DNA from: an uncultured archaeon
GTDB lineage: Archaea > Asgardarchaeota > Thorarchaeia > Thorarchaeales > Thorarchaeaceae
Length of the DNA stretch: 64,000 nucleotides
Assembly (NCBI GenBank): GCA_964610875.1
Contig: CAZSWP010000018.1
Span: forward strand, 1 to 64,000
Reading direction: 5' to 3'
Numbering within the stretch: the first letter of the stretch is position 1; each line of letters begins with the position of its first letter. This document shows positions 8,627 through 61,283 of this stretch, piece after piece. The notes beneath the pieces are model-generated. The model saw only the letters and a list, made by a program, of their open reading frames with translations. It was not told the origin of the DNA and did not search any database. Position numbers and translations under genes: made by a program.

Positions 8627-9481
8627 ATGAAAAGGGGGTTATTAACAGCTGCCAAACACCTGAACAATCCTAGACATTTTTGGTGGGAGATTAGATACTT
8701 CAGAACGGAATAAATTCATAGGTCACCTGACACCTGTGTGCTGACCCCACGGAGTAACGTTCTAGTGCCGTCCCTGGAAGGACAAGACTCCGGTGTCCAG
8801 ATCTGTCCATCTTACAATGAACGGTTTGTAATCCTATTACTAATACTATCTATGGTTAATTCCACTTCTGCCACACATAGTCAAGGTCTTGAGTGGAAAT
8901 ACGAAGAAGGTGCGCAGTATGACTTTAGAGAAGTATATTATCGCTCTTAAAATGAGTCAACAACACTCGTAGAGGATATGGTATACTATGCAATTGCTCC
9001 AGAGTATACTGAACTAGTCGACCCACTAAATGAAAGTAGCATGATACCAATTCGTCGTGCGCCTACTTACTGGTCAAACGGAACAGAAATGAACCTATTA
9101 CCAATTCGTTTTGCTGTGCCTGTAGGCAATTGGTCTCTATTTAGTGAAATAGTTATGAGTCGCTCCGATGATAATAATGGTTACAATATAATTGACACGA
9201 TTGATGTATGGGGATACGAAGCGGAATACCAAGCCGGTATTGACCAAGTCTATCATTCAATGGAATATTCGAAAAACGATGGTGTGTTAGTTCGTTTGGT
9301 TTTTGAATTCACCATTCTAAGTACTACACATTTGACAATAGTAGAGAGGGTGGGTTTAGGACCAAGTATCCTTCAAATTGGCATAACTCTTGTTGCAGCG
9401 ATTGCAGTTGTAGTCGTCTTGGTTATGTACAATCGTTACAAAAAAAAAAATGAAATCTCTTTAAACAAAAAAAGATGGTGA
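8627..9481 (+). pseudogene. Paralog of 7872-8570, disrupted by a mini-element and a nonsense codon
   Basis: Removing 8639-8824 gives MKRGFVILLLILSMVNSTSATHSQGLEW... The in-frame TAA at 8948-8950 aligns with Tyr in the paralog, and the frame continues into ORF 8978-9481. Confidence 0.8.
8639..8824 (+). mobile_element. 186-bp non-autonomous (MITE-like) derivative of the IS607-like element
   Basis: The left end GGG|TT..ACAGCT..CCTAGACATT and the right end TGCCGT..TTACAATGAACGG|TT match the ends of the large element. Excision restores the host frame. Confidence 0.85.
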
Positions 9482-12228: not shown

Positions 12229-14199
12229 TCATTTTTCTTGAGCTGTTGCTGATTGATGCATCGCTCTCGGTTTGATTTGCAACTCATAGAGTGAGTAGTA
12301 TTTTCCTTTCTTTGCCATCAGTTCGCCATGACGTCCTGATTCTACAATTTTACCATCTTCGAGAACTAGAATTCTATCTGCATTCACAATTGTCGAGAGT
12401 CTGTGTGCAATCACGATGGATGTTCGGTCTTTTAGTAGAGCTTTCATTCCTTTCTGAATTGCATACTCAGTATAGATGTCGATAGAACTCGTTGCCTCAT
12501 CAAGCACAAGGATCTTTGGATTTGCTAATAAAGCTCTAGCGAAGCTTACAAGCTGTCTCTCTCCCTCTGAGAGATTACTTCCTCTCTCACCAACTTCAGT
12601 GTCAAATCCGTTCTCTAAACTTTCAAGCACTCTTCTTGCTCCGATAGCATCTATTGCTTTCAGCATCTCTTCATCAGATGCTCCAGGTCTTCCATATCTA
12701 ATGTTCTCCCTGACAGTTCCCATGAACAGGAATGGGTCCTGCAGGACTAGACCTATACTGGCTCGCAGTGACTCCTGCGTAACACTACGAATATCAATGT
12801 CATCAATCTTGATTGCTCCTCGTGGGTGCACCTTCAGTTTCTCCCCATCAATCATGACATGGTCGTCTTCAACTGTATATTCCTCGCCCTCGATTACAAC
12901 AGAATTGGCGATTATATCATAGGTTCTTCCATTGTATTTTACAAATACATCACGTTGTACATCATAGAATCTATTCAGCAGGCTTACAACAGTAGTCTTC
13001 CCTGCTCCTGTATCACCAACAAGAGCGATTGATTCACCTGGCTTTATTTCTAGGTTGAAATGTTCGAGAACAGGTTTCCCTTCTACGTAACCAAAAGTGA
13101 CATTATCAAAGGTAATCCTTCCTTGTATCTCAGGCATTTCAATGGCTGTAGGGCTATCCATTATTGTCGGCATCTCATCAAGAACACTAAATACTCTCTC
13201 TGCTCCAGCAAATGCACTTTGTACACTTGTGTAGAAGTTTGATATTATTAGGATTGGTCGGAAGAACATCTGGCTGAACTGAATGAAGAGAACCACAGTT
13301 CCTAGAGTCACAGTACCTTCAATAAGACGAAATCCTCCAAAGAGCAAGATCAAGAAAATCCCGGCAGCACCAATGAATCTGATTGTGGGGAAAAATGTCG
13401 ATTGTGCCTTACCAGCATCAATATTTGCTCGATAATCTGCTTTGTTGATTTCATCAAAAATCTCTACACTCACATCTTCACGGGCAAAGCTCTTTGTAAC
13501 TTTTGCTCCTGATATGGTTTCAGCGAAATTGGATGTGACACCAGATATAGTCTTTCGAGTACTACGATATGCTTCTCTTAATTTTCTTCGGAAGTAGATT
13601 GTTGAGATTAATAGGATTGGAATGACACTCAAAGAAACAAGCGATAGTTGGACATCCACTGTGAAGATAGTATATCCTATCGCAATCACAATGAAGGCTT
13701 GGGCAAATGCATCAATTAGCCCTCCACTGAGTAACTCACTCATTCTATCGATATCATTTGTGATTCTGCTGATTATTCTTCCAGAGGATGATTTATCATA
13801 GAAATCTTGAGACATGTCTTGTAAGTGTTGATACAAATCTTGTCTGATGTCATATACTGCTTGTTGCCCCATTGAGGAAACAGTGTATTCAGATCCATAT
13901 GCGACAAGCCAAGCGATTATCTGTAGCACCACGTAATAGATTGCTGTATTGAGAAGGGCGGCAATGTCTCCAGAAACAAAGTCGACATCTATTGCTTGTC
14001 TAATAACAAAAGGCTGGATTATTGAAACGATGATGCCTGCAATTGTAAAAATAACTACTGCAAGGAAATGCTTACGGTATGCTAGAAGATAGTTGACCAT
14101 TCTCATGAGAAGGGTCGAATCAGAATAGATGTATGCCCTAGCGTCCGGGTCGTCTTGAATATTCAGACCACTACTCAGCTGATACCCCTCCTTGTTCAA
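12229..14199 (-). CDS. ABC exporter, fused permease/ATPase (heterodimer subunit)
   Basis: TMD plus GDTGAGKT, non-canonical signature LSEGERQ, LDEATS and IAHRL. Confidence 0.95.
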   Translation of the reverse strand: MNKEGYQLSSGLNIQDDPDARAYIYSDSTLLMRMVNYLLAYRKHFLAVVIFTIAGIIVSIIQPFVIRQAIDVDFVSGDIAALLNTAIYYVVLQIIAWLVAYGSEYTVSSMGQQAVYDIRQDLYQHLQDMSQDFYDKSSSGRIISRITNDIDRMSELLSGGLIDAFAQAFIVIAIGYTIFTVDVQLSLVSLSVIPILLISTIYFRRKLREAYRSTRKTISGVTSNFAETISGAKVTKSFAREDVSVEIFDEINKADYRANIDAGKAQSTFFPTIRFIGAAGIFLILLFGGFRLIEGTVTLGTVVLFIQFSQMFFRPILIISNFYTSVQSAFAGAERVFSVLDEMPTIMDSPTAIEMPEIQGRITFDNVTFGYVEGKPVLEHFNLEIKPGESIALVGDTGAGKTTVVSLLNRFYDVQRDVFVKYNGRTYDIIANSVVIEGEEYTVEDDHVMIDGEKLKVHPRGAIKIDDIDIRSVTQESLRASIGLVLQDPFLFMGTVRENIRYGRPGASDEEMLKAIDAIGARRVLESLENGFDTEVGERGSNLSEGERQLVSFARALLANPKILVLDEATSSIDIYTEYAIQKGMKALLKDRTSIVIAHRLSTIVNADRILVLEDGKIVESGRHGELMAKKGKYYSLYELQIKPRAMHQSATAQEK

Positions 14200-16069
14200 T
14201 AGATGCTGCCAGTTCCATCTGAGTAAGAGTTTCTACAATACTTGCATACAACCCACCACGATTTAGTAACTCTTGATGGGAGCCTTTCTCTACAATTCTG
14301 CCTTTTTCCATCATAACAACAGTATCCGCATTTCTCACGGTGCTGAGTCTGTGGGTGATGATGAAAGTGGTACGTCCCACCATAAGGTTCTCAAGCGCTT
14401 GTTGGATCATCATCTCTGTCTTGGCATCAACTGAGCTTGTTGAATCGTCAAGAATGAGTATTTTCGGATTGGCAAGTAAAGCACGAGCTATTGCAATCCT
14501 CTGTTTCTGACCACCACTAAGCGTAACACCTCTCTCTCCAACAACGCTATCGTATCCCTCATCTAATTGCATAATAAAATCGTGAATCATTGCAGCCTTA
14601 GCAGCATTTTGAACTTCTTCCATTGATGCATTTGGCCTAGCAAATGCGATATTCTCACCGATTGTGGATGAGAAGAGAAATGGGTCCTGATGGACCATAC
14701 CTACGCGCTCTCTCAAATTATCTAAGCCGTACTCGCGAACATCATATCTGTCAATCATGAGTATTCCTGGTGTCTGAACTTCGATTGTTCTCCCGTCAAT
14801 CTCCACCTTATCAGATTCTACAAGATATTCCTTCTCTCCAATACTGATTTTTCCGTCCTGCACTTTGTATGTTTTACCATCATATTCGATGTAGGGATCG
14901 CTATCAGCATCATAAAAACGAGGTATTAGATTGACTAGGCTGGTCTTACCTGAACCTGTACCACCGAGAAGTGCAACAACTTGTCCTGCAGGAACATCAA
15001 GAGTGAGGTCCTTGAGAATATGTCTTCCACCAGGATAGCTAAAGAATACATGGTCGAAGGTAACTCTCCCTTCAATCTCCTTGTCAACAGGAACCTCTGG
15101 GTCCGTCACTTCATCCTTATGGTCTAAGATATAGAAAGTTCTCTCCGCGGATGCTGATGCTCTTTGGTACATTCCAACTCCCCAGCTCAGGAAGCGTGCA
15201 GGTAGCATCAACATTCCCACAAGTGTGATGAATGCTACAAATATACCATAGGAGAGTGGGCCATTGCCAGCATCAAATGATATACCACCTAGGTATAGAA
15301 GTAAACCTGTCACAACACCAAACATTGTTGGAAGAAGTGGCCTATAAAAGGCGAATAATCTGAAGGCTTCAACTCTGAGGTCTAAGAATTTCCTATTCTC
15401 TTTCTCAACACGTTCTCTTTCCCTTTCTCCTGCCGCAAATGACTGTACGAGCTTTATGCCCACAATATTTTCTGCCAGTACTGAACTTAGTTCACCGTAT
15501 TGTTCCCTTGCTGCGTAGAATACTGGACGAACACGTTTTGCGAAAGAGTAGATGAAGACAATAATGATAGGGATTAAGAGAAACATATAGAGGGTCAGGC
15601 TGACATCAAGAATGAACATGACTACATAAACACCGAAAAGGGTAGCTGCTCCGATGAAGATGACCCGATATCCCCAGAACAGGAACTCTCTCATTTGTGT
15701 TACGTCTGTTGTGACTCGAGAGAGTAACTGTCCAGTTTCTTCTTTATCATAAAATGATAGGTCCTTTTCCATAAGTGCGTGATAAAGATCTGTACGTAAA
15801 TCATAGATCACATTCTGTGACAGAACTGCTGCACCATACCGTCCTATGATGTCAAATATCATGTACAATGCAGAAAGGAGGGCATAGAGTGCTACACTTG
15901 GAATCAGTTGGTCGTATTGTTCACCATAAATTACAGAATCGATAATATCTGCAAGCACCACTGGCGTCAAGACATTGAATATGGTTCCAACTCCTGCAGC
16001 TGTTAAGAAACCAAAGAATAGCATCTTATGCTTAAGTGCATATTCTGTAAGACGCCTTATGTATCCCAT
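14171..16069 (-). CDS. ABC exporter, fused permease/ATPase (heterodimer subunit)
   Basis: TMD plus GGTGSGKT, LSGGQKQ and a degenerate Walker B (LDDSTS). Confidence 0.95.
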   Translation of the reverse strand: MGYIRRLTEYALKHKMLFFGFLTAAGVGTIFNVLTPVVLADIIDSVIYGEQYDQLIPSVALYALLSALYMIFDIIGRYGAAVLSQNVIYDLRTDLYHALMEKDLSFYDKEETGQLLSRVTTDVTQMREFLFWGYRVIFIGAATLFGVYVVMFILDVSLTLYMFLLIPIIIVFIYSFAKRVRPVFYAAREQYGELSSVLAENIVGIKLVQSFAAGERERERVEKENRKFLDLRVEAFRLFAFYRPLLPTMFGVVTGLLLYLGGISFDAGNGPLSYGIFVAFITLVGMLMLPARFLSWGVGMYQRASASAERTFYILDHKDEVTDPEVPVDKEIEGRVTFDHVFFSYPGGRHILKDLTLDVPAGQVVALLGGTGSGKTSLVNLIPRFYDADSDPYIEYDGKTYKVQDGKISIGEKEYLVESDKVEIDGRTIEVQTPGILMIDRYDVREYGLDNLRERVGMVHQDPFLFSSTIGENIAFARPNASMEEVQNAAKAAMIHDFIMQLDEGYDSVVGERGVTLSGGQKQRIAIARALLANPKILILDDSTSSVDAKTEMMIQQALENLMVGRTTFIITHRLSTVRNADTVVMMEKGRIVEKGSHQELLNRGGLYASIVETLTQMELAASIEQGGVSAE

Positions 16070-16168
16070 TTCTCTGTCCTCTGGGCTATTTCTCTCCTTT
16101 ATGATAAGGCTTGTGTCATTGACATAGAATTAGCACGAGTCTGCAAGGGTTTGATAACAGCTACATGA

Positions 16169-16189
16169 AACCCAGACAAACCTAGACAT
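16169..16189 (+). repeat. Left subterminal repeat (two 10-bp units), inverted partner of 24697-24717
   Basis: AACCCAGACA-AACCTAGACA-T matches the reverse complement of 24697-24717 at 19/21 positions. Confidence 0.8.
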
Positions 16190-16217
16190 TGATTAGGTTA
16201 TAGTTTTACGAAAGACC

Positions 16218-16838
16218 ATGTTCTCAGTAGCACAAGCTGCTCTTCGCCTTGGTGTCTGTGTCAAGACCCTCCATCGATGGGACCATGTAGGCAAGCTCCA
16301 CTGCACGAGGACTCTGGGTGGGCATCGCAGGATCCCCCTCTCTGAAGTCAACCGTCTGCTGGGCATCTTCCATCGGAAGCTCCTCGACACTCCACCTCAA
16401 CGAAAGAGATGCGCCATCTATGCACGAGTATCAGGTCATCGACAGAAGACTGATGGAGACCTTGACAGACAACTTCACACGCTCACACAGGAATGTAAGA
16501 ACCTATTCAGGACCAGCCCCATCGTCCTCTCAGACATCGGTTCCGGACTGAACATGCGACGCAGATGCCTCAAACGGTTATTGAAACTAGCTAGACAAGG
16601 TGTGATCCATGCAGTGCTCCTCACTCATAGGGACAGGCTAGCACGATTTGGAGTGGAACTTATTGAACGCATCCTAGAAGAGTATGGAGTCAAAGTTATT
16701 GTGCTCTATGAGGAGACCCATCAGACCCCACAAGAGGAACTGGTCACTGACATGATGGCCCTGCTAGCCTCCTTCTCAGGGAGGGTCTATGGGCTTCGGG
16801 CCCGACAACACAGCAAGTCTACCACTCTCCAAACCTGA
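16218..16838 (+). CDS. tnpA: IS607-family serine recombinase/transposase TnpA
   Basis: MerR-like HTH (LGVCVKTLHRWD..GGHRR), then YARVS (catalytic Ser), DIGSGLN, RDRLARFG and ELVTD...SFSGRVYGLR. Confidence 0.95.
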   Translation: MFSVAQAALRLGVCVKTLHRWDHVGKLHCTRTLGGHRRIPLSEVNRLLGIFHRKLLDTPPQRKRCAIYARVSGHRQKTDGDLDRQLHTLTQECKNLFRTSPIVLSDIGSGLNMRRRCLKRLLKLARQGVIHAVLLTHRDRLARFGVELIERILEEYGVKVIVLYEETHQTPQEELVTDMMALLASFSGRVYGLRARQHSKSTTLQT

Positions 16839-19800
16839 ATCCTACCTTCTTCATCAGCTGAATCACATCTTCTTCAATAGCTCCGTGTTCTCTGTCTGCA
16901 ATACCATAGCTCTCCAGTGCACTAGTAATATCACTACTGACCGTGACTGGGGAGATGAGGTCTCCTGTGGGAGGTGAGAATGGTGGAATAACTCGGACTC
17001 CCACAACATCTCCAGTAGTGGTTTCAAAGACCGCTTCGATATACCGCATCTTGGTCGTACGGTCAGTACAGAGCTGCACCTCTCTATAGTGTACATCCTC
17101 TCTTGAAAGGACATCTTCTTCAGCAGCAGAGTCCTCCCTGCTTTCTCGTTCTGTTTTATAAAGCTCGGAGATTCCTGCAAGTCGTTCTGTCAGTTCTGTT
17201 TCATTCAACAAAAGGTACTGCCCGATCTCACTCCCCTCCTCCTCCATAGCTTCAATGAGTGCTTCACAGTCCGTTTCCGTGAAGGAATGACAATAGATTT
17301 TGACCTCTGTCCCATCCTCTTCCCATCTCCTGATGGTGAGGGTGTAGTCACCTGCACTTCCAGAAATTTCTCCAATGCATTGGGGTGGGGTCTCACTCCA
17401 TCCGCGACAAATCAGGTCCTCCCGGAGAGAACCAAACACCGTTTCTACGTTTTCAAGGTGAAGGATATCCACCACACTGGAGACGACCTCTTGGAATTCT
17501 GCTAGGATGCTCTCAAGGTCACGAGTCGGGTCCAATTGGAACGAATATAGATTGTTCATCCAGATCTTCCCTGTGGTGAGGGAAACCACATGCCAGTTGA
17601 TGGCAGTCTTGGAGAGAGAGACCTGTAGATTCCATGAGTTTCTGGTCCAGTCGAAATCATCTGGATGAACACTCCGCACTGACTCTTGCAACCTTGGATA
17701 CGACCGGAGGTGATAGTCCTCCACTCCGAGAAGCCCTCGTACATCCCATTTGACCTCATGGAACAGCTGATTCTTGGTATCGAAGAGTCTTGTTGTTTCC
17801 ACCAGGAGTCCTGCTTCAAAGAGGGAGAGGACCACCCCATCATAGGGGGCCAGAGATGAAGTTGAAGAGACTCCCGTTATAGATATTCTGACCTCATTGT
17901 ACCAGTCATCCACCGCATCAAGCTTCATGGTCACTGGAGCTACCTCTTGCATGGAGAGGAGTTCATGACAGGTCGTCGGATACTGGTAGAGGTCACGGAG
18001 GAACCAGCTCCGTTTCACCAGCGGGATGAGAAAGGTCAGTGATCCATCATAGGTGATGTCACTACGATGGTCCCAGCTCAGATAGCCGATAGTGGTTTCA
18101 TACCCCACACCACGACTGATTGGTCGTCTGAGAACAGACACCAGTTCATCTGTGTCAGTAATGCGTTCCTGTACATCCCCTTCTGTGGTCTCGAAGTCAA
18201 TGACATACTCCTCCCATTCCTCGTCAAGAGCAACCGTGAGGGTAACAGGAATGACCTCTTTCTTGAGTTGGACAAGTCGTAGTAGCTCGGTGTCTATCTG
18301 TTGAGATGAAGTCTTGCCAACTACTGGAAGATGGAGATTTTCAAGAGAGAGGGAGGGGACTACGAACGGATTGGAGAGCTTGATCCAGGGGACAATCCCA
18401 TGTTCTCTATTGAGCGTACTATGTTCGAACACATAGGGAGTCCATGTGTCTTCCTCCTCAAGATACAGCCAGAGAATCCTATGTTGTTCCACTTCAGTGA
18501 TTAGAACATCGGTACGTTGTGAAACACCAAGTGCTCCTTGTGCCATCTCATTGAGAACTGCTGGATCTGTTTCACACCGAGACCATCCCTCAGAGAGCCA
18601 TGGTCCTAAAAGTCCTGTTATGCATCCTGTGAGGTAACCATGGGATGTATGAGGGACTACTAGTATAGCTGCAGAGAGGTTGCCTTCCTCTAGCCAGATG
18701 ATATGTCCTGCTCGACTGCTGGTTCTAAGAGAATGCTCAATGTGCAGCTGCATCAGGATCCTTTTTCGCCATTCCAAGTCCCTATGAATGGCATAGAGGT
18801 CATACTTTGCCTCTATATTCTCAGTATCTGAACGCAGTCCCATCTGATAGAGTGTCCATCCTGTGACTGCCTCCCAGAGCGTTTCTCCAAGGGCACTCTG
18901 AAGATCATCATCATCCTCTTGCTGTATGACAGCACAGACCAGAAGAAAGAGATTGTTTCCGTATAGGAGAAAGAGGTCTGGATGCTTCTCCAACGTTCCC
19001 TCCAGTGCCTGTCTGTGGTCAGAGTTCAGAAGGTGAAAGAGCGCTTTCCGTTGTGGACGGAGTGTCTCCCAGAGAGGTACAAGAGTATCTTCAGAGAGGA
19101 TGATCTCTTGGATTTCATACAGTACTTGTAGTAATTGCTTTGAATCATGGCGTCCCGTTCCCTTTATCGAACTGAGTATGCTTTTACATAGAGAGACTAT
19201 CTTCTCACAGGTACTCTGAATCCCTTTTGGAAGCAGTCTTTCGAGAAGATACTGTGCTGCTGAGTAGATTCTCCTAATCTCCCACAGTCGGGAAGCGACC
19301 GTATCTAGAGAAAAATATAAACTGGAGGGAGTGCTTGGTGGTCGGCAGTGTGTCCATATTGTCCCATCCTCATTCTCAGTTAACACTTTTCTGGGGGTTC
19401 TCTCATAGAACCATCTCCGGGTAATCTTGTTGGCTGATGAATGTGTCTTGCTTGAGCGCGGCGATTCAGGAGGTGGTCTGTCAGAGCAGAATCGCACTCT
19501 TTGCATGAGGGTCTGAGATGATGATGCAACTACTTCATGGGAAACAAATGGTATCTTCTCTTCTATGGTTTCATCAAAGACCTCCTCTTCCGACCTTGGT
19601 CTTCCAAGACTGGGAATTAGGTCTTCAGTAGATGTTAACATCTCAACATGCCGTTCTCTGGTGAGTCGTTCAATGGAGCTCTGGATAGATATGAGTCTGG
19701 TTTCTCTTGCATACATGTTTCTCTGTGTGTGTACTTCTCTCCTCACATCTGCTTCAGTGATATGTCCGTCCCGCCGAGAGCTCCCTCTGAACCGTCGAGA

Positions 19801-22335
19801 GAAGTCAATGAGGTATGGCACATGAATCATGGTCTGCCAAGGTCGTGTCTTTGTTGGGATGTCCTGCACGATGATTCGCAGGTCCTCACGCCATGGGACC
19901 AGATTACCAAAGCAACGAGGATGGAGAGGGATGTTGTAGAGAATCTCATCGAGGTGATACCGTCGTGGTGAGTCAAAGGGAAGAGGCGAGATACCGTTCC
20001 GCTGGTAGTCTGCTGAGAATCGAGTATGCTGTACTCCCTCATCGATCCAGATGAGATTCGTATTCTTGGTAGGGAGTTGTTCAAGTAGTAGGAGTTCCAG
20101 CCGCTTGAGAAGATATCCCTCAGAAGAGGGAGCAACCTTCTTGAGTTCACTCCACCCATCAAGAATGATTATGTTTTGTTGTTCTTTGTCAATATGTTCT
20201 AGAATCTGCTCCAGTGTATTCTCTGTGTCTGCGAGCAGTTCATCCACTGGAGTTTCCGGAGAGATGAACACGATGTCCTTCAAGATGGCTTGAAGTTCAT
20301 GATATTCTTGCAGAGTCAATTTCTTTTCACCAAGGAGGAAGTCTAAGCCAAATCGACTCTGCACAAGCTGCTCAGAAGAGAAGTCACCAAGGAGGTCTAT
20401 CCAATAGACCTTGATAGGGTCTTCTTCTACCTCTCTGCATTCTCTAATGTGATGGAGGAGATGATAGTTCCGAGACCGATATGCAGCGGTCGTTCCTGAA
20501 GAGGTGGGTGCAGGAATTGATACATAGAGGGTGAAGAACCGTTCGTCTGCAACTCTGTCTTTGAAAGGATTTTCAACAGTTGGAATTGTTGGTTCAGCAA
20601 GGTCTTGTAGCAGATAAATGGGACCTCTTGAGGGCAGAGTGAGTAATGCAACACGTTCTTTGATAGTATAAGAAGATGGAGCATCTTCTGTGGGGCATTC
20701 TCCTACTTCTAGCTTCTTACTGATAGCTTCCAGAATCCTTTGGAAATCATCAAAGACATCCTCTGGTGACTGGTCCGTGTCCAGTATGATAATGCCTTTC
20801 CAGAGAAACATGGGTGGAGTCATGTCTGAATCCATTATGTCACCGTATTCATCTAGCAATAGGTTCTCATAGGCGCGGAGTTGGTCAATGTGCTCCTTAT
20901 CAGGTGGCGAGATTAGTAATGTGTCCCATTCCCCTTGTGTCAGTCCTCGCTTCCAGACATGGGACACTGGAACATAGTCGTCCTTGGTCTTACTCCCAAT
21001 CTTCTTACCAAAAATATTGAATTCAAACCCCGTCTTGGTCTTGACCTCTAAGACCATGACCGGAGTCCAGATGCACCTCTTGCCCACCTTTCGTCTGATG
21101 AAGAATGTTAGGTCTACCTGTCCCTGTCTGTTCTTGAGAGGGAGTTCTCCCACAACTAGGACGGATGAAGGTGTATCCATCATTTTATCTCCTGCAAAGA
21201 CGACCTGTTTCAGGGACTTGGGATGATGCAGGGCTGAGAGGAGGACACGATGCCAGCGAGTTCCCTCCTCTGAACTCAACTGGAGCATTTGCTTTGTGAG
21301 CTTCTCCACATCTCGATCATGGAGGATACCCTGATCTATCAGATTGAGAATATGGCAATGCTGTTTCTTCTGTTCCTCGTTATCAGAGTTCTCTAGACTT
21401 GCTTCTATGATACTCTTGAGATAGTCAAGCGAGTACTCCGGTTCATCATCAAGACTGGCAGTGATGGATCTCCTCTCTCCGATATGCCGCCCATAGAGTG
21501 CCCGTAACTCAAGAATGATGTCCCAAAGAATCTTACGGGCATCTTTGATAAAGTAGGGTTTTCCATCTTTGCCTTCCGTGTAGACCCAGTCAAGATAGGG
21601 TCGAAGCTTGAGAATGAGGCGTCTGATATAGCGATGAGCCTCCGTACGAGGGACATTGTGGATGAAGCACTGACGGCAAAGCTCGTACACGTGACACCTG
21701 ATCATATCAACAAAGTCAAGACTGGGAAGGGTGGGATGAGCGAGAAAGACCTGTGGTGTCGTGGAAGTGCCACTGTAGCCTGCTTTCCAGTAGACCTTGA
21801 CATTCTCATCCACACTTGGTTTTACGTGTTCATACTCTCCAGTCTGTTTCAGACTGTCGATGAGTTCCTTGGCATAGACCTTGTATGAACCGTCAGGATA
21901 CCTCCAGATTTGAAAGAACCGAGGTTCAGGAAAGGGATACCTGGTCATAGCGAGCTCTCGAAGCCGTGCCCCAGCGTAATTGAGCAATGCATTGAGAGGC
22001 CCTACTGTACCTTTTGCCCAATCATAGACCCTCTTTCGTTCCTTGTTTCCATAGGGGACTGTACTCATCCAGAGAAATTGAAGGAACGTTTTGCGGATAT
22101 TTGCTTCCTTCTTACTCAAAGGAAAATAGTCGGGCCTTATGCCTTCTTGTTCGTCTAGTGTGTGCCGAACTTCATTCCACATCTTGTAGATGGACTTTCT
22201 TATACTCCGATACTGATGTTTGGTTCGGGACTCGATTATCTTCACTAATCCCCGAATGCCCTTGTAGGACGCCCGTGTAAGGACCACATTTGGTCGGAAC
22301 GCTCGCGCTATTCTTCCCATTCTTATTCTGTACAA
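16819..22335 (-). CDS. Giant (1838 aa) element-encoded protein with PD-(D/E)XK nuclease motifs and a degenerate P-loop-like region
   Basis: Long uninterrupted ORF. It contains GELPL..GQVDL..VLEVKTK..QLRAY, then APTSSGTT / YWIDL / IIILDGW. A homolog lies at 61271-64000. The start may be the ATG at 22320. Confidence 0.8.
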   Translation of the reverse strand: MYRIRMGRIARAFRPNVVLTRASYKGIRGLVKIIESRTKHQYRSIRKSIYKMWNEVRHTLDEQEGIRPDYFPLSKKEANIRKTFLQFLWMSTVPYGNKERKRVYDWAKGTVGPLNALLNYAGARLRELAMTRYPFPEPRFFQIWRYPDGSYKVYAKELIDSLKQTGEYEHVKPSVDENVKVYWKAGYSGTSTTPQVFLAHPTLPSLDFVDMIRCHVYELCRQCFIHNVPRTEAHRYIRRLILKLRPYLDWVYTEGKDGKPYFIKDARKILWDIILELRALYGRHIGERRSITASLDDEPEYSLDYLKSIIEASLENSDNEEQKKQHCHILNLIDQGILHDRDVEKLTKQMLQLSSEEGTRWHRVLLSALHHPKSLKQVVFAGDKMMDTPSSVLVVGELPLKNRQGQVDLTFFIRRKVGKRCIWTPVMVLEVKTKTGFEFNIFGKKIGSKTKDDYVPVSHVWKRGLTQGEWDTLLISPPDKEHIDQLRAYENLLLDEYGDIMDSDMTPPMFLWKGIIILDTDQSPEDVFDDFQRILEAISKKLEVGECPTEDAPSSYTIKERVALLTLPSRGPIYLLQDLAEPTIPTVENPFKDRVADERFFTLYVSIPAPTSSGTTAAYRSRNYHLLHHIRECREVEEDPIKVYWIDLLGDFSSEQLVQSRFGLDFLLGEKKLTLQEYHELQAILKDIVFISPETPVDELLADTENTLEQILEHIDKEQQNIIILDGWSELKKVAPSSEGYLLKRLELLLLEQLPTKNTNLIWIDEGVQHTRFSADYQRNGISPLPFDSPRRYHLDEILYNIPLHPRCFGNLVPWREDLRIIVQDIPTKTRPWQTMIHVPYLIDFSRRFRGSSRRDGHITEADVRREVHTQRNMYARETRLISIQSSIERLTRERHVEMLTSTEDLIPSLGRPRSEEEVFDETIEEKIPFVSHEVVASSSQTLMQRVRFCSDRPPPESPRSSKTHSSANKITRRWFYERTPRKVLTENEDGTIWTHCRPPSTPSSLYFSLDTVASRLWEIRRIYSAAQYLLERLLPKGIQSTCEKIVSLCKSILSSIKGTGRHDSKQLLQVLYEIQEIILSEDTLVPLWETLRPQRKALFHLLNSDHRQALEGTLEKHPDLFLLYGNNLFLLVCAVIQQEDDDDLQSALGETLWEAVTGWTLYQMGLRSDTENIEAKYDLYAIHRDLEWRKRILMQLHIEHSLRTSSRAGHIIWLEEGNLSAAILVVPHTSHGYLTGCITGLLGPWLSEGWSRCETDPAVLNEMAQGALGVSQRTDVLITEVEQHRILWLYLEEEDTWTPYVFEHSTLNREHGIVPWIKLSNPFVVPSLSLENLHLPVVGKTSSQQIDTELLRLVQLKKEVIPVTLTVALDEEWEEYVIDFETTEGDVQERITDTDELVSVLRRPISRGVGYETTIGYLSWDHRSDITYDGSLTFLIPLVKRSWFLRDLYQYPTTCHELLSMQEVAPVTMKLDAVDDWYNEVRISITGVSSTSSLAPYDGVVLSLFEAGLLVETTRLFDTKNQLFHEVKWDVRGLLGVEDYHLRSYPRLQESVRSVHPDDFDWTRNSWNLQVSLSKTAINWHVVSLTTGKIWMNNLYSFQLDPTRDLESILAEFQEVVSSVVDILHLENVETVFGSLREDLICRGWSETPPQCIGEISGSAGDYTLTIRRWEEDGTEVKIYCHSFTETDCEALIEAMEEEGSEIGQYLLLNETELTERLAGISELYKTERESREDSAAEEDVLSREDVHYREVQLCTDRTTKMRYIEAVFETTTGDVVGVRVIPPFSPPTGDLISPVTVSSDITSALESYGIADREHGAIEEDVIQLMKKVGFRFGEW

Positions 22336-22508
22336 TACCTTGTTCTTATTTACTTATAAGTAATAGTACTTTTATTAAGAAACCATAATATAGAGTTTAA
22401 AACATTATAATCACTCAAAATCAAAAAATAAGTTCTCATAATATTCTAATCTTGATAACTTTATAACTAAATATGACAATATAACCCCTGCTATAGAATA
22501 GAGAGTGG
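22336..22508. promoter_or_regulatory. AT-rich divergent promoter region (cargo / tnpB)
   Basis: Very AT-rich spacer inside a GC-richer element, with TATA-like CTTATAAG (~22353) and TTTATAA (~22460). Confidence 0.55.
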
Positions 22509-24704
22509 ATGACGATGAAGCAAGACTCACCCCGGTGTCATCTCCGGGTGCAGAAGGAGGAATCTCCGAAGCAGAAGACAATAGATGACAACTTTATAAC
22601 TGATTCATCGACGTCCGAAGAGAACAGACCACTGAAGACCGGGTTGAAATACCTTGTAGAGTCCTTCACACTCTGTTCTATTGATCGTGAAGTGAACAAG
22701 AAGGGGAAGATAAAGCGACCTGGTCCTCGCTTTCGTCGAAAGACAAGAGCTCATGACATCCAGACTCCTTTCGAGCAAGCTACTGGGAGAAAAGTCCAGA
22801 ACCCCGACCTATCCCTATTAGGTTCTTACTTTGAGAAGTATGTTGAGTTAGTGAATCTTGTCCTTGAGCGAGTGTATTCTCATCAGGGAAGGATTGATGC
22901 TCTAGGGGAGGAGCTGCATTCCTATCGTGGTCAGGGGTATGTCCTGTTGAAGAAAGAGGAATACCTCACCTATAGCCGCAATGAAGAGGTCAAGGCCCAG
23001 TGCTTTGAACGCATGTATCGCAATGTCTTGGAACAGGCTGCGAGGGTCATTCATTCGAACTGGATGCGAAGACAGTTGATGCTCAGTGCTATTACTTCTA
23101 TCAAAGAGGATAGAGACATCGTGCTGTCTTTCTTGAAGAACAAGTACATCCCAGCTAAGTTGGCAAAGGTGGTGCGTGAGAGTTGCGAGTGTGTCAAGAA
23201 CAATGGTTCAGGATATTACTACTCCCTGTCTGTATTGAAGCAGCTCAGGAAAAGGATAGATGAACACATCCTCTCAGAGCGAGGAGAACCCCTTGGCTCT
23301 CGAAAGTCCCAGCGAAGACGAGTGAGTGGCTATCTCAGAGATACTACTGAAGGTGCTGGTGTTCTTGCCAGTGTTGATGCCCTCTTACAGGAGTTTATTG
23401 AGAGTGGATATTCCTTTGAAACGCCAAGGATGTTCTCCTATACCGGGGATTTCTCAGCTTCCACAGAGAACAGTCCCGGACAGGGCTACTGGTACTCACG
23501 GGACCCTGAGAAGGAGCATGAGATATTCTTCTTCCTCAAACTCCCCGAACCCCTTGAAGGTACAGAACAAATGGGTTCACCCTATAGAACAAACACACTT
23601 CCTTTCCGATTTCTCAATTGGTTACCACGAGCTGCAAAGAGGGACAGAGAGAAGGCAAAATTAGCTGATAAAGAAGGGAAATCACTTCGAGCCAGGAAGC
23701 TCAGGTTTCGAGCACGAAGGTTCGAGGACATGCAGCAACAGCTTATCAACACCATTGAGCTCCAACATGCGACCTATCAACTTGCACGGTTGCAGTCCAG
23801 ACGAGTGAAGGACACTGAAAAGATCAAGATACTACAGGAGAAGATAGACGGACTTCGAGAAGCACGGACCTGTGGCCCGCCAAGACTTCTTCTTCGTGGA
23901 CACCGAGTAGAACTCCAGATTCCTTTCTTACCACCAACCAGAGAGATGCTGGATGATGAACTTGGGACAACCCGGACCTATCACAGGCGAGCAGGTGCAG
24001 ACCGGGGTGTCCGAGTCCCCATTGTCCTCTCTGTACGGAATGGCGAGGGGGAGTTTGTGGATGAGCTTGTGGCTTGTGATGAACTACTCCAGAAACGGGA
24101 CCTCCTCAGGGAGCAGACCAAAGCCCTGAGCTCACAAGTCAAACGGATGCGGAACAACTGGGACCGCAAGTACCCTGACCATTCTCGTTCCTATCCCGAC
24201 CACCTGTTGAAGAAGGAACGACACCTTACAGCAATCTGGAGAAAGATTCGCAGACTCGATAGAGAGATAGCTCGTCAGGTGGCAAGTCAGACGGTCTGGT
24301 TCTGTGAGATGCACGGAGTGAAGATGCTGTACTTCGAGAACCTCAAGAACTACACACCTGCCGCCGGGTATGGAAATCTGTCATGGCGATTGAGCTCAAA
24401 CCTCTGGTCAAAGGTTCTGGATACGGTCAGGTACATGCGCCAGTCCCTCGGACACAAGTATGGAGGGATATGGACCGTGAGTCCGGCATGGACCTCTCAG
24501 AAGTGTCATGTCTGCGGAGAGCGAGGCATTCGCGTAGAAAAACCGGATGCCACAGATGAATACAGAGGAGGAGAGTTCTTCCATTGTGAAAATTGTGGAT
24601 GCAGAATCCATGCGGATGTCAATGCCGCACGAAACATCATTGATGTGAAGTTCAAGACACCCAGTGCCGTTTCTGGGCAGACAACACTAGACCCCCATGT
24701 CTAG
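22509..24704 (+). CDS. tnpB: Large TnpB/Cas12-like RuvC RNA-guided nuclease (731 aa)
   Basis: RuvC-I GADRG, RuvC-II YFENL, Zn finger TSQKCHVCG..CENCG and RuvC-III HADVNAARNI. It lies at the right end of an IS607-like element. Confidence 0.9.
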   Translation: MTMKQDSPRCHLRVQKEESPKQKTIDDNFITDSSTSEENRPLKTGLKYLVESFTLCSIDREVNKKGKIKRPGPRFRRKTRAHDIQTPFEQATGRKVQNPDLSLLGSYFEKYVELVNLVLERVYSHQGRIDALGEELHSYRGQGYVLLKKEEYLTYSRNEEVKAQCFERMYRNVLEQAARVIHSNWMRRQLMLSAITSIKEDRDIVLSFLKNKYIPAKLAKVVRESCECVKNNGSGYYYSLSVLKQLRKRIDEHILSERGEPLGSRKSQRRRVSGYLRDTTEGAGVLASVDALLQEFIESGYSFETPRMFSYTGDFSASTENSPGQGYWYSRDPEKEHEIFFFLKLPEPLEGTEQMGSPYRTNTLPFRFLNWLPRAAKRDREKAKLADKEGKSLRARKLRFRARRFEDMQQQLINTIELQHATYQLARLQSRRVKDTEKIKILQEKIDGLREARTCGPPRLLLRGHRVELQIPFLPPTREMLDDELGTTRTYHRRAGADRGVRVPIVLSVRNGEGEFVDELVACDELLQKRDLLREQTKALSSQVKRMRNNWDRKYPDHSRSYPDHLLKKERHLTAIWRKIRRLDREIARQVASQTVWFCEMHGVKMLYFENLKNYTPAAGYGNLSWRLSSNLWSKVLDTVRYMRQSLGHKYGGIWTVSPAWTSQKCHVCGERGIRVEKPDATDEYRGGEFFHCENCGCRIHADVNAARNIIDVKFKTPSAVSGQTTLDPHV

Positions 24705-25125
24705 CTTTGTCTAGGTTACAATCAACGGTTCTACCTAACTCTCTACACTTCTCAAGCATCTCTTCATTAGGATAATCTTTTACCTTAACCGGCTGTCCGT
24801 CAATGAGTAAAGCATCTACATTCTGAAGCGCATCAGCAATCTCATCGGGAGCTTCTCCACTCCACCCATATGAACCAAATGCTGCAGCTCTAATACCTTT
24901 TAGTGATGTCATCTTCGATAATATTTGTTTAATCTTTGGAAGAGGTCTCTTCATCCGCGTTGAACTTCCCATAGCAATAGCGCATGCATCATCGAGGTCT
25001 GTATAGTCTTTTGCCTCTATAAGAACACATTCCTTCCCAGATGCAGTTACTCCTTCGCACACTGCTTCAGCCATTGTCTTTGTTCTACCTCGTGTTGACT
25101 CATAGATCACATTTACCTTTGACAT
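24652..25125 (-). CDS. Flavodoxin-like (FprA C-terminal-like) protein, 3' end interrupted by the element
   Basis: Motifs VIYESTRGRT, AFGSYGWSGEA and EKCRELGR. Its native last codons lie at 16130-16149, and the current tail is element-derived. Confidence 0.85.
   Translation of the reverse strand: MSKVNVIYESTRGRTKTMAEAVCEGVTASGKECVLIEAKDYTDLDDACAIAMGSSTRMKRPLPKIKQILSKMTSLKGIRAAAFGSYGWSGEAPDEIADALQNVDALLIDGQPVKVKDYPNEEMLEKCRELGRTVDCNLDKARHGGLVLSAQKRHWVS
24660..24748 (+). ncRNA. Predicted omegaRNA 3' scaffold (to 24728) plus flank-derived guide; 5' extent unknown
   Basis: Hairpin CCCAG/CTGGG whose loop CCGTT is complementary to the terminal AACGG (pseudoknot). A second hairpin is AGACAA-ca-CTAGAC/GTCTAG-ct-TTGTCT. 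Two other copies show compensatory changes. Confidence 0.65.
24697..24717 (-). repeat. Right subterminal repeat (two 10-bp units)
   Basis: A-TGTCTAGCTT-TGTCTAGGTT, inverted relative to 16169-16189. Confidence 0.8.
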
Positions 25126-25174
25126 AATCTGTAGATGATTATGCATGTAACTAAAGATTTCTGAATGGAATTTT

Positions 25175-25873
25175 TTGTACAATTGTGTGAAAATGTCAGG
25201 CGATATTGACCTTCTCAAAAAGAAAGCTGGTATTGTATGTGAACTTCTCATTGATAATTATGGTGATAAAATAGTAGAGCGAAAACTACCTCCTATTGAT
25301 GAACTCATTCTCACAATACTGAGTCAGAATACTAACGATGTCAATATGTTCCGTGCTTTTAAATCTCTCAAGGAAAAATATGTTGACTGGAATGAAGTAC
25401 TCAATGCACCTGAGGAAGAGATTGGACAAGCCATAGTTTCATCGGGGTTTTTCAGAGTGAAGGCAAAACGAATCAAGGCAACTCTACAAGAGATTATGAA
25501 GCGGAGAGGATCATTAGACATCGCATTTCTAGAAGACATGCCTGTTGAAGAAGCTACTGAATGGCTTACTTCTCTCCATGGAGTTGGTCCAAAGACTGCG
25601 GCAATAGTCCTACTATTTTGTTTTGAAAAGTCTACTTTACCAGTAGATACACATGTGTGGCGATTGAGTAAGAGATTGGGCTTAGTACCAAAGAGAACTA
25701 GTAGGGAGAAAACTCAGACACTACTTGAGAGTCTTATTCCTCCCAAGTGTATCTTCTCACTTAATCATAATCTTATCAAACATGGACGAACAATCTGCAA
25801 AGCACGAACCCCTCTATGTGAAGATTGTTTTCTTCAGAGTTTATGTAGGTATTACAGTGAAAAGAGCAGATAA
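25175..25873 (+). CDS. nth: Endonuclease III (HhH-GPD glycosylase)
   Basis: Motifs ILSQNT, LHGVGPKTA, PVDTHV and the FeS motif CKARTPLCEDCFLQSLC. Confidence 0.9.
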   Translation: MYNCVKMSGDIDLLKKKAGIVCELLIDNYGDKIVERKLPPIDELILTILSQNTNDVNMFRAFKSLKEKYVDWNEVLNAPEEEIGQAIVSSGFFRVKAKRIKATLQEIMKRRGSLDIAFLEDMPVEEATEWLTSLHGVGPKTAAIVLLFCFEKSTLPVDTHVWRLSKRLGLVPKRTSREKTQTLLESLIPPKCIFSLNHNLIKHGRTICKARTPLCEDCFLQSLCRYYSEKSR

Positions 25874-47814: not shown

Positions 47815-48276
47815 ATGGCAAAGCTCGAACAATCTGGTGTCTTTCTGTTATCCGATAGTTTTGAGTCAACCACTCAATTCTATGAAAATATACTATCCCC
47901 GGTGCCGTTGCTGGGCTGACAACATTGGACTACCATGTCTAGGTTACAATCAACGGTTGAGTTTGGTTCATTTGGCTTCTGAATATATAGCTCGACCAAG
48001 TAAATATGCCTGAACCTTGGTTCAAGGAAAAAGTGTCTGAGAATTACTTGAACTACTTAGAGAAAGGTGTTATTGATTCACTACCGTTATGCTCCCAATG
48101 TGATAATCCCTTTTCAAACGGATGATATTCAGGAAATACACAAGCAAATCTTTGAGAGAAAACCTAAACCCGAATTCATCACGGATATCCTGCGAGTCAC
48201 TTTCAGCATTCCTTACTCGTTCTTCGAATTCGCCAACCCAGAAGGAAACATGGTAGAGGTTTTTCAATTCACCTGA
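47815..48276 (+). pseudogene. VOC/glyoxalase-family pseudogene containing an element remnant
   Basis: The N-terminus ...STTQFYENIL and the C-terminus FEFANPEGNMVEV are separated by an element end, stops and frameshifts. Confidence 0.6.
47898..47956 (+). mobile_element. Solo right end of the IS607-like element
   Basis: CCCGGTGCCGTTGCTGGGCTGACAACATTGGAC..CATGTCTAGGTTACAATCAACGG aligns with 24660-24728, lacking one 10-bp unit. Confidence 0.85.
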
Positions 48277-60196: not shown

Positions 60197-60668
60197 TCAC
60201 CAGGTTTTATGTTGTCATTTTTTGATATTGAAATATCATGCCAAAATGATAGTTTGTTACAATGATTTTCCGTACACAAGTCAATATCTACTATTTGTTG
60301 CGCGCATTTCCAATAACGGGAAAAAATGTACGAAATTGTGCCCAATTATTACACAAGGCAGAGAAAATCGGCAAATTGGGGTGTTTCATTACCAGAAACG
60401 AATTCTTCAGACTTTTAGGGTTCATTCTTAGTGTACACGCGATTACTCTCATCTACTAAATGCGATTCTTCCTCATCTGGTTGGTGATTCGGAGAATCAC
60501 GACTAATTGCTAACTAAAGAATGTCTTTGTAACAATCAGTGGGATAGAAATTATCCTCATCCTTCTCGTGATTTGTATACCATACTTGAGCGAAGAACGG
60601 GTTGCCGACAGCTAGTAAAAATCAAGATAAACCTAGACATTGATTAGAAGTCTCTTTGAAGGAACGGT

Positions 60669-61283
60669 ATGTTCTCAGTATCACAAGCAGCTCTCAGGTT
60701 GGGAGTATGTATCAAGACCATCCATCGATGGGACAAGGCTGGCAAGCTCCACTGTCATCGTACCATCGGTGGACACCGCCGCATCTCCCTTGCAGAGGTC
60801 AACCGCATCCTTGGGCTCTTTCATCGGGACCTCATCGATCATCCTGATAGGAAACGATGTGCCATCTATGCCAGGGTGTCCAGTCACCGACAGAAGCGTG
60901 ATGGGGACCTTGACCGACAACTCCAGACCCTTACCAAGGAGTGCAGGAAACGATTCAAGTCACGTCCTCTGGTCTTCTCAGATGTTGGCTCCGGGCTGAA
61001 CATGAAACGGAGGGGGCTCGCCAAGCTCTTCTCCCTCGCAAAGTCAGGAGCTATCCACACCCTCCTCATCACTCACAAAGATAGATTAGCTCGGTTCGGA
61101 GTCGAGCTCCTTGAGCGGATCCTCACTGACTACGGCATCAGACTCCTTGTCCTCTACCATCCAGAAGACCAGTCACCACAACAAGAGCTCGTCACCGACC
61201 TCATGTCCCTCATCGCCTCCTTTTCGGGTCGCGTCTATGGACTCCGTTCTCATCAGTCCAAGATTGTCCCTCAGTCCTCATAG
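60669..61283 (+). CDS. tnpA: IS607-family serine recombinase TnpA (copy 2)
   Basis: Same motifs as 16218-16838 (YARVS, DVGSGLN, KDRLARFG, SFSGRVYGLR). Confidence 0.95.
   Translation: MFSVSQAALRLGVCIKTIHRWDKAGKLHCHRTIGGHRRISLAEVNRILGLFHRDLIDHPDRKRCAIYARVSSHRQKRDGDLDRQLQTLTKECRKRFKSRPLVFSDVGSGLNMKRRGLAKLFSLAKSGAIHTLLITHKDRLARFGVELLERILTDYGIRLLVLYHPEDQSPQQELVTDLMSLIASFSGRVYGLRSHQSKIVPQSS

Follow-up and report, generated by a model that had tools for sequence, protein, structure and literature searches.

CRISPR adaptation and the Cas12 effectors are believed to descend from two transposon-derived ancestors, Cas1 integrases and TnpB nucleases respectively, and the Asgard archaea are the archaea closest to eukaryotes. 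'Asgard Cas1' (aCas1) is reportedly to be attributed to Makarova et al., 2020, in CRISPR J, and to our knowledge the aCas1-TnpB class has been catalogued by computational surveys and never studied biochemically. Two Asgard-linked groups of TnpB, Cas1H-Asgard-1 and Cas1H-Asgard-2, have been associated with aCas1, which has been suggested to be a transposase replacing the serine recombinase, and a variable region followed by GTTCACTCA is located downstream of tnpB in these loci (PMC10691335). In the current analysis we have considered a stretch of 64,000 nucleotides, referred to as the window, from the start of contig CAZSWP010000018.1 of an uncultured archaeon of the Thorarchaeaceae (assembly GCA_964610875.1), in which a giant gene and a divergently oriented tnpB are the conserved core of a mobile element. 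The giant protein is best explained as the integrase and nuclease core, of the aCas1 family, of this TnpB-linked transposon, a reading to which we assign a probability of about 0.62.

The giant gene is encoded on the reverse strand at positions 16819-22335, where 1838 codons are open from a TTG. The database copy of the protein has 1833 residues and starts five codons after the TTG. As the homologs also align from Met6 onwards, translation probably begins at the ATG at 22320. A previous interpretation of this DNA, referred to here as the sequence-only reading, had given the same frame and quoted motif strings that are all present at the expected places (E397 near nucleotide 21147, Y489 near nucleotide 20870, TLYVSIPAPTSSGTT at residues 601-615, VYWIDL at 643-648 and IIILDGW at 722-728). 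Its nuclease, its degenerate RecA-like module and its link to TnpB are retained in the present description, its orphan status and its defence or toxin role are not, and the Cas1 domain had been overlooked.

Putative Cas1-type integrase domain

The N-terminal 270 residues are the best conserved part of the giant protein, and residues 7-268 (21532-22317, reverse strand) are assigned, on the basis of structural matches and profile comparison, as the α-helical catalytic domain of a Cas1-type integrase. The structure was modelled using AlphaFold2 from an alignment of 38 homologs that are 24-44% identical, with a predicted local distance difference test score (pLDDT) of 84 and a predicted template modelling score of 0.83 for residues 1-900, and a pLDDT of 78 for residues 900-1838. 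All ten PDB matches identified by VIA over residues 7-268 are Cas1 or casposase structures (Z-scores of 13.5 to 9.9, 163-194 residues aligned, root mean square deviation (rmsd) about 4) and no match other than Cas1 covers this region. They include 8flj_A (Z 13.5, 178 residues, rmsd 4.0), 4n06_B (Z 12.8), 4w8k_A (Z 12.3), 7kft_D (Z 12.2), 7mi4_A (Z 11.2) and the casposase 6opm_A (Z 11.1), and the matched part corresponds to the C-terminal catalytic helical domain of Cas1.

Since a chance arrangement of helices can give Z-scores of this order, sequence profiles have also been compared. An hhalign alignment with 20 canonical Asgard Cas1 proteins has an E-value of 0.018 for a single comparison and brings the motifs into register, with E77 on the catalytic glutamate of the Cas1 motif 'LMGIEG', GPLNALLNYAG on 'PxNALLSYGY' and LDFVDMIR on 'LDLxExFR'. 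The candidate active-site residues are E77, H200, D207 and D210, and the PLNALLNY motif comprises residues 113-120. E77 is conserved in 37 of 37 homologs, and N115, H200, D210 and R213 in all 38; D207 is an aspartate in 37 and a glutamate in one. No residues of the giant protein are better conserved than these.

Predicted nuclease domain

Residues 366-545 (20701-21240, reverse strand) are predicted to form a nuclease of the PD-(D/E)XK class, similar to Cas4 and RecB, as had been proposed from the QxxxY pattern in the sequence-only reading. E397, D408, K432, K434, Q485 and Y489 are present in all 38 homologs and position 430 is a glutamate in 31 and an aspartate in seven, so that the motif E397/D408/(E/D)430-x-K432/Q485xxxY489, with its D..E.K residues, is invariant apart from this exchange. 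The predicted strands 392-400, 405-417 and 420-434, the helix 480-500 and the strand 512-519 carry the motifs in the order expected for this fold. No conserved cysteines for an iron-sulphur cluster are found in the alignment of the domain, and the families PF01930 and PF12705 have no match on the giant open reading frame (ORF).

The domain is interrupted by a β-hairpin insertion of 42 residues (about 437-477). Comparison of the complete domain with 24 Asgard Cas4 proteins in hhalign is insignificant (E-value 0.23-0.32), and removal of the insertion gives an E-value of 0.0042 with the aspartate, ExK, QxxxY and β4 aligned. The nearest named neighbours according to a language model are families of the PD-(D/E)XK clan, namely UL24, PDDEXK_9, PDDEXK_3, PDDEXK_1 and Cas4; all of them score below 0.9 and serve as leads at most.

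Association with TnpB

The partner of the giant gene in the window is a tnpB on the forward strand (22509-24704) that encodes a TnpB/Cas12f-like protein of 731 residues, in which the D/E/D residues of RuvC and a zinc finger of the form CxxC..CxxC are preserved. The two genes diverge from a spacer of 173 bp (22336-22508), which is their shared upstream region. A divergent tnpB is located just upstream of the giant gene in 27 of 27 testable loci, which confirms, as a strict association, the link with TnpB that had been suspected earlier. These loci comprise six fetched from other assemblies, 19 from five other genomes and both copies in the window; a giant gene in the five genomes was considered testable if its upstream side was assembled, and all 19 such genes are paired. 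The TnpB-like partners in the six fetched loci have 555-721 residues. Among the TnpB partners, both the zinc finger and the Asp/Glu/Asp residues of RuvC are preserved, and from these residues the partners are apparently active. No recurrent neighbour other than tnpB was found in the compared loci, be it antitoxin-like, Cas2-like or shared cargo.

Of the 18 loci in which a giant-family member adjoins a short TnpB, 15 have the motif GTTCACTCA with no more than one mismatch, and the other three have two differences. On this ground the giant family corresponds to the proteins filed as aCas1, the partner of TnpB. The motif was not found at the end of the window's own tnpB. In the loci L069-L084, L016 and L017, a variable stretch of 10-17 nucleotides lies downstream of tnpB between the conserved scaffold end GGGTGGAACACAGAAGTT and GTTCACTCA. 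A hairpin around GTTCACTCA has been considered and rejected: folds of single sequences pair the variable stretch with bases after the motif, and the number of pairs in fixed register (75) is close to that of controls that were slid along the sequence (73 and 70). Rfam has no match anywhere along the window element.

An IS607-family serine-recombinase TnpA is encoded on the forward strand of the window at 16218-16838 (NF033518, E-value 8e-52; Pfam Resolvase and MerR helix-turn-helix (HTH) domains). It is convergent with the giant gene and overlaps its 3' end by 20 nucleotides. Such TnpA proteins are confined to the subgroup with a long TnpB, namely both window copies and the locus L014, and none was found in 15 loci with a short TnpB. 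The TnpA beside another giant gene (P0071; L013, 13498-14141) matches in two pieces in different frames and is probably frameshifted, and in L011 a TnpA remnant of 44 residues directly follows the stop codon of the giant gene.

One related genome (G108) encodes, on several contigs, at least six copies of the short tnpB that are 78-80% identical in DNA sequence, the 3' flank included. These far outnumber its giant-gene copies, which implies that the tnpB modules also spread alone.

Mobility of elements without TnpA

The mobility of the TnpA-less relatives is best exemplified by the locus L085, in which a segment of 9,299 bp encoding tnpB, the giant gene, an ORF of 42 residues and an ORF of 427 residues interrupts a conserved exosome gene cluster. 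The flanks are contiguous in two other genomes, and at the filled site the exact 13-bp direct repeat TTATCGTTTCTAT is present at both junctions. The ORF of 427 residues is not recurrent among the compared loci, and the end of the element is only 22 nucleotides past the GTTCACTCA motif.

A 13-bp target duplication is given for a family 1 casposase in the abstract of PMC8464041, and the duplication at L085 is of the kind that a Cas1-family integrase would leave. Direct repeats are found at other loci as well: 12 bp abutting the conserved terminus in L096, 17 bp in L099, and about 45 nucleotides of a tRNA-Gly 3' half in L101. The TnpA-less elements with repeats encode no other recombinase gene, and among their products only the giant protein is a plausible integrase. 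A search of four loci for terminal inverted repeats gave no convincing case, except for the inverted tRNA-His fragments that surround L011.

Several loci have tRNA genes as neighbours (L071, 670-744; L078, 255-329; L101; L011, 5458-5531), and tRNA-Gly(TCC) is the neighbour in two different genomes. In L101 the giant gene is closely followed by another, diverged copy of the tRNA 3' half, and L011 is bracketed by a tRNA-His and a 46-nucleotide inverted fragment of tRNA-His.

Ends and copies of the window element

The element in the window extends from about 16150 to 24728 (8.6 kb), with tnpA, the giant gene and tnpB between IS607-type ends. At the left end (16150-16200, forward strand), the similarity to a second copy and to a mini-element of 186 bp starts right after GGG/TT. 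The right end (24660-24728, forward strand), ..GTCTAGGTTACAATCAACGG/TT, is common to the mini-element and to a solo end near 47956, and the similarity among the three stops at ..CAATCAACGG/TT, position 24728. A serine recombinase TnpA with an N-terminal MerR-type HTH, a tnpB and GG/TT-type junctions without target duplication are all found in this element, whose ends fit IS607-type recombination without duplication. TnpA probably moves the window copy. This makes the part of the giant protein in the trio less clear, although none of its catalytic residues has been lost.

Copy 2 of the element begins at 60602 and continues to the end of the window at 64000, with a tnpA at 60669-61283 (forward strand) and a giant gene that runs on the reverse strand from 61271 past the window end to C18:66559. 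The giant genes of the two copies are 40% identical overall and 32% identical across the C-terminal 793 residues, in agreement with the similarity to copy 2 seen in the sequence-only reading. The G+C content of the giant-gene region is 0.47-0.49 as against about 0.40-0.42 in its surroundings, and it is likewise higher at the end of the window, in copy 2.

The mini-element (8639-8824) has the same sequences as the 8.6-kb element at its left and right ends and looks like a non-autonomous derivative. The solo right end (about 47898-47976, ..TGTCTAGGTTACAATCAACGG/TT) has no left end nearby. Directly to the left of the element, at 12229-16069, are two tandem ABC transporter genes with fused membrane and ATPase domains, and a flavodoxin gene (24652-25251) overlaps the right end.

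Distribution of the giant family

The giant gene is a member of a multidomain family specific to the Asgard family to which the window belongs, and is not the orphan that it had been taken for. A word-indexed search has identified 76 clusters (90% identity) of full-length relatives, which are 1,200-1,900 residues long and 25-45% identical. When 1.84 billion representatives were searched exhaustively with a profile, 183 clusters (50% identity) were recovered, all of the same giant family, and no differently built relatives. Every named relative is from Candidatus Thorarchaeota or Promethearchaeia/Promethearchaeati.

A survey of 201 Asgard genomes, which include 43 from the window's own family, reveals the giant family in 28 of these 43 and in one of 157 other Asgard genomes, which is of another family, and in none of the remaining 150 that were searched. 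The number of matches per genome varies from one to seven, and the occurrence is patchy inside genera (10 of 15 genomes in one genus, for example). Some copies have internal stops or are fragmentary. The genome of the window, an assembly of 3.75 Mb in 124 contigs, encodes two further full paralogs (40% and 27% identity) along with fragments. It also has two ORFs of about 810 residues (G000:C104:1496-3901 and G000:C47:23414-25822) that match the giant protein at residues ~717-854 and 1554-1725 alone, and from these matches they seem to be shorter relatives that lack both the Cas1 domain and the nuclease.

RecA-like module and C-terminal half

Residues 597-890 (19666-20547, reverse strand) form an α/β domain of the RecA/RadA/KaiC/DnaB type. 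Foldseek matches it to RAD51 with an E-value of 1.2e-4, the VIA Z-scores are 10-11.8 (2ekd_A 11.8 with 171 residues aligned, 8faz_X 11.8, KaiC 8dba_A 11.3), and the BFVD matches are RecA/DnaB-like alone, phage DnaB-like helicases included. The P-loop position reads S-P-T-S-S-G-x, with S612 and G614 in all 38 homologs. A lysine at 615 is present in only eight of the 38, and a Walker A motif GxxxxGK[ST] with an invariant lysine is not found in the alignment. The earlier description of a degenerate, lysine-less P-loop of RecA/KaiC type is therefore right. W645 and D647 are conserved in all 38 homologs and D726 in 35.

The module is followed by a second helical domain (residues about 1003-1184; 18784-19329, reverse strand) that resembles the Cas1 helical domain only weakly (Z 6.7). 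Its comparison in hhalign with Cas1 and with the N-terminal domain of the giant protein returned nothing. Residues about 1207-1740 (17116-18717, reverse strand) comprise β-rich and α/β domains that are conserved in the family and modelled with a pLDDT of mostly 85-95. No convincing fold could be assigned to the C-terminal half, about 850 residues in length, in Foldseek (PDB), VIA wide or ESM Atlas searches, as anticipated from the want of recognisable motifs in this long region. The best matches are Cas1-like helices (Z 6.7), small α/β domains (Z 5-6.7) and Atlas models with TM below 0.31. Scans of the giant protein or its domains against Pfam, NCBIfam, PADLOC and PHROGs returned nothing. The sole result of a PDB profile search by sequence, an intein (E-value 0.03), is considered a chance match.

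Proposed role and alternative explanations

Direct support is available for the domain folds, the residue conservation, the tnpB pairing, the insertion with target duplication and the IS607-type ends, and from these we infer the enzymatic steps and how they are divided among the parts. The Cas1 domain would join the 3'-OH ends of the element to staggered target positions and so leave about 12-13 bp of the target duplicated. Cutting or trimming of DNA ends may be the task of the fused nuclease, comparable to that of Cas4 alongside Cas1 and of TnsA in Tn7, and the dead RecA-like module and the C-terminal region may serve in assembly or DNA binding. TnpB with a guide RNA would act on the target or on the empty site.

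A number of observations weigh against this role. The hhalign probability for Cas1 is low (2.5%), and the Cas1 histidine falls a few residues off H200 in the profile alignment. PF01867 has no match to the giant protein in a Pfam scan or in a six-frame genome search at E-values up to 10, the same search in which the canonical Cas1 of the genome scores 1.8e-81. The match to Cas1 begins at residue 7, which corresponds to Cas1 residue about 81-114; there is no room upstream of it, and hence the N-terminal β domain of Cas1 is missing. The alignment with Cas4 needed post hoc removal of the insertion and has an hhalign probability of 8%. No PD-(D/E)XK chain is among the structure matches listed by Foldseek, VIA and BFVD for the 900-residue model, since Cas1 and RecA-like matches filled every list. 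The identity with aCas1 is suggested by the motif and by the description in PMC10691335. Among the TnpA-less loci, 12 of 16 have no exact flanking repeat of at least 12 nucleotides, and a clean pair of filled and empty sites is available for one element only. The paralogs within the genome are old, at 27-40% identity, rather than recent copies. Finally, the IS607 ends without duplication imply that the giant protein is not needed for the movement of the window copy.

This last point bears on an explanation that we regard as unlikely and yet as the strongest of the alternatives, in which the giant protein is a helper of TnpB-driven homing and not a transposase. The nuclease would resect the cut empty site, and the RecA-like and Cas1-like modules would promote copying of the element back from the sister chromosome. 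The strict pairing with an apparently active TnpB, the RecB-clade QxxxY motif beside a RecA-type fold, and the presence of IS607 TnpA or its remnant in the window and four related loci, with IS607-like ends, are all as homing would have it. The RecA-like domain, however, is devoid of the Walker A lysine in 30 of the 38 members. Homing alone also leaves the invariant Cas1 active-site residues unexplained, and where TnpA is lacking, the elements have duplicated targets and no gene for another recombinase.

The integrase reading could also be extended such that the giant protein and TnpB work as one machine, in which a guide RNA picks the site of Cas1 insertion or the Cas1/Cas4-like module rewrites the guide segment. 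The obligate pairing, the catalytic residues kept in both proteins and the variable stretch that separates the conserved RNA scaffold from a conserved repeat-like motif within the element end make this extension compatible with the data, and we consider it decidedly improbable at present. If true, the element would be an RNA-guided Cas1-based transposon comparable to the CRISPR-associated transposons, or a one-spacer precursor of type V CRISPR adaptation.

It is a little less probable still that the giant-TnpB pairs are for the most part domesticated host genes with a cellular, non-mobile function such as RNA-guided regulation or repair. The ancient paralogs within the genome do suggest long-lived subfamilies over bursts of transposition, and TnpA is absent from many copies; such a function is nevertheless difficult to reconcile with the patchy presence within genera, the pseudogenised copies with internal stops and fragments, the polymorphism of filled and empty sites with target duplication, and the recurrence of the same end sequences in the mini-element and the solo end of the window.

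The least probable explanation, put forward in the sequence-only reading, is a defence or toxin cargo in which a restriction-like nuclease would protect the host or stabilise the element by post-segregational killing: the PD-(D/E)XK nuclease is conserved, mobile elements often carry defence genes and the TnpB/Cas12-like partners resemble CRISPR effectors, but no domain has a PADLOC or PHROG match, tnpB is the only neighbour that recurs and nothing antitoxin-like is found, the Cas1-type integrase domain and its conserved catalytic residues would be left unaccounted for, and the gene, rather than being variable cargo, makes up the invariant core of a discrete insertion that has duplicated its target site.

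Cas1 and TnpB are locked together in these natural Asgard elements, and the Cas1 domain shares one protein of 200 kDa with a Cas4-like nuclease and a degenerate RecA-like module. The family raises the questions of whether integration of the Cas1 type is possible in the absence of Cas2 and of the N-terminal domain of Cas1, what the fused nuclease contributes, and whether cooperation between an integrase and an RNA-guided nuclease occurs outside CRISPR. With its defined ends, the copy in the window is a clean and apparently intact example, and the filled and empty site of L085 with its 13-bp duplication is a concrete substrate for assays.

Comparison with known systems

The aCas1-TnpB loci are the nearest counterparts of the giant elements, with which they share the occurrence in Asgard archaea, a Cas1 homolog adjoining tnpB, flanking repeats and, in the short-TnpB relatives (15/18), GTTCACTCA. 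The window subgroup differs in its longer TnpB (617-731 residues), the absence of GTTCACTCA and the IS607-type ends, and in that an IS607 TnpA co-occurs with the Cas1-like gene instead of being replaced by it.

Casposons likewise have a Cas1-family catalytic domain as the likely integrase, with a similar size of the duplication (13 bp at L085 and, in the abstract of PMC8464041, 13 bp for a family 1 casposase), and some copies of the giant family are situated at the 3' ends of tRNA genes, as in casposons. Unlike casposons, the giant elements have no PolB gene and no Cas1 N-terminal domain, no convincing terminal inverted repeats were detected in the four loci searched, and the enzyme is a fusion of ~1,800 residues that is always paired with TnpB.

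The combination of a Cas1 catalytic domain and a nuclease of the RecB/Cas4 clade in one polypeptide is reminiscent of Cas4-Cas1 fusions and complexes, and the structure matches include the Cas4-Cas1 complexes 7mi4_A and 8d3p_A. In contrast to the Cas4/Cas1/Cas2 systems, the Cas1 domain precedes the nuclease, conserved cysteines for an iron-sulphur cluster are absent and the locus has neither Cas2 nor a CRISPR array. Canonical cas4-cas1 pairs are encoded elsewhere in the genome (G000:C70:7267-8599 and C114:19-840; PF01930 and PF01867, E-values 1e-44 to 1e-81), and hence the giant protein is additional to a normal CRISPR adaptation module.

Tn7 and the CRISPR-associated transposons also bring together a restriction-like nuclease (TnsA), an integrase (TnsB) and a P-loop-type ATPase (TnsC) with an RNA-guided module. 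This likeness is by analogy only and homology is not claimed: the giant integrase is of the Cas1 type rather than DDE, the P-loop module looks inactive, and TnpB here keeps its nuclease residues.

With IS607 elements the window element shares TnpA (E-value 8e-52), TnpB and GG/TT-type junctions without duplication. It is distinguished from them by an antisense gene of 5.5 kb between tnpA and tnpB, which gives an element of 8.6 kb. The giant gene is not a known component of IS607, and it partners tnpB even where tnpA is absent.

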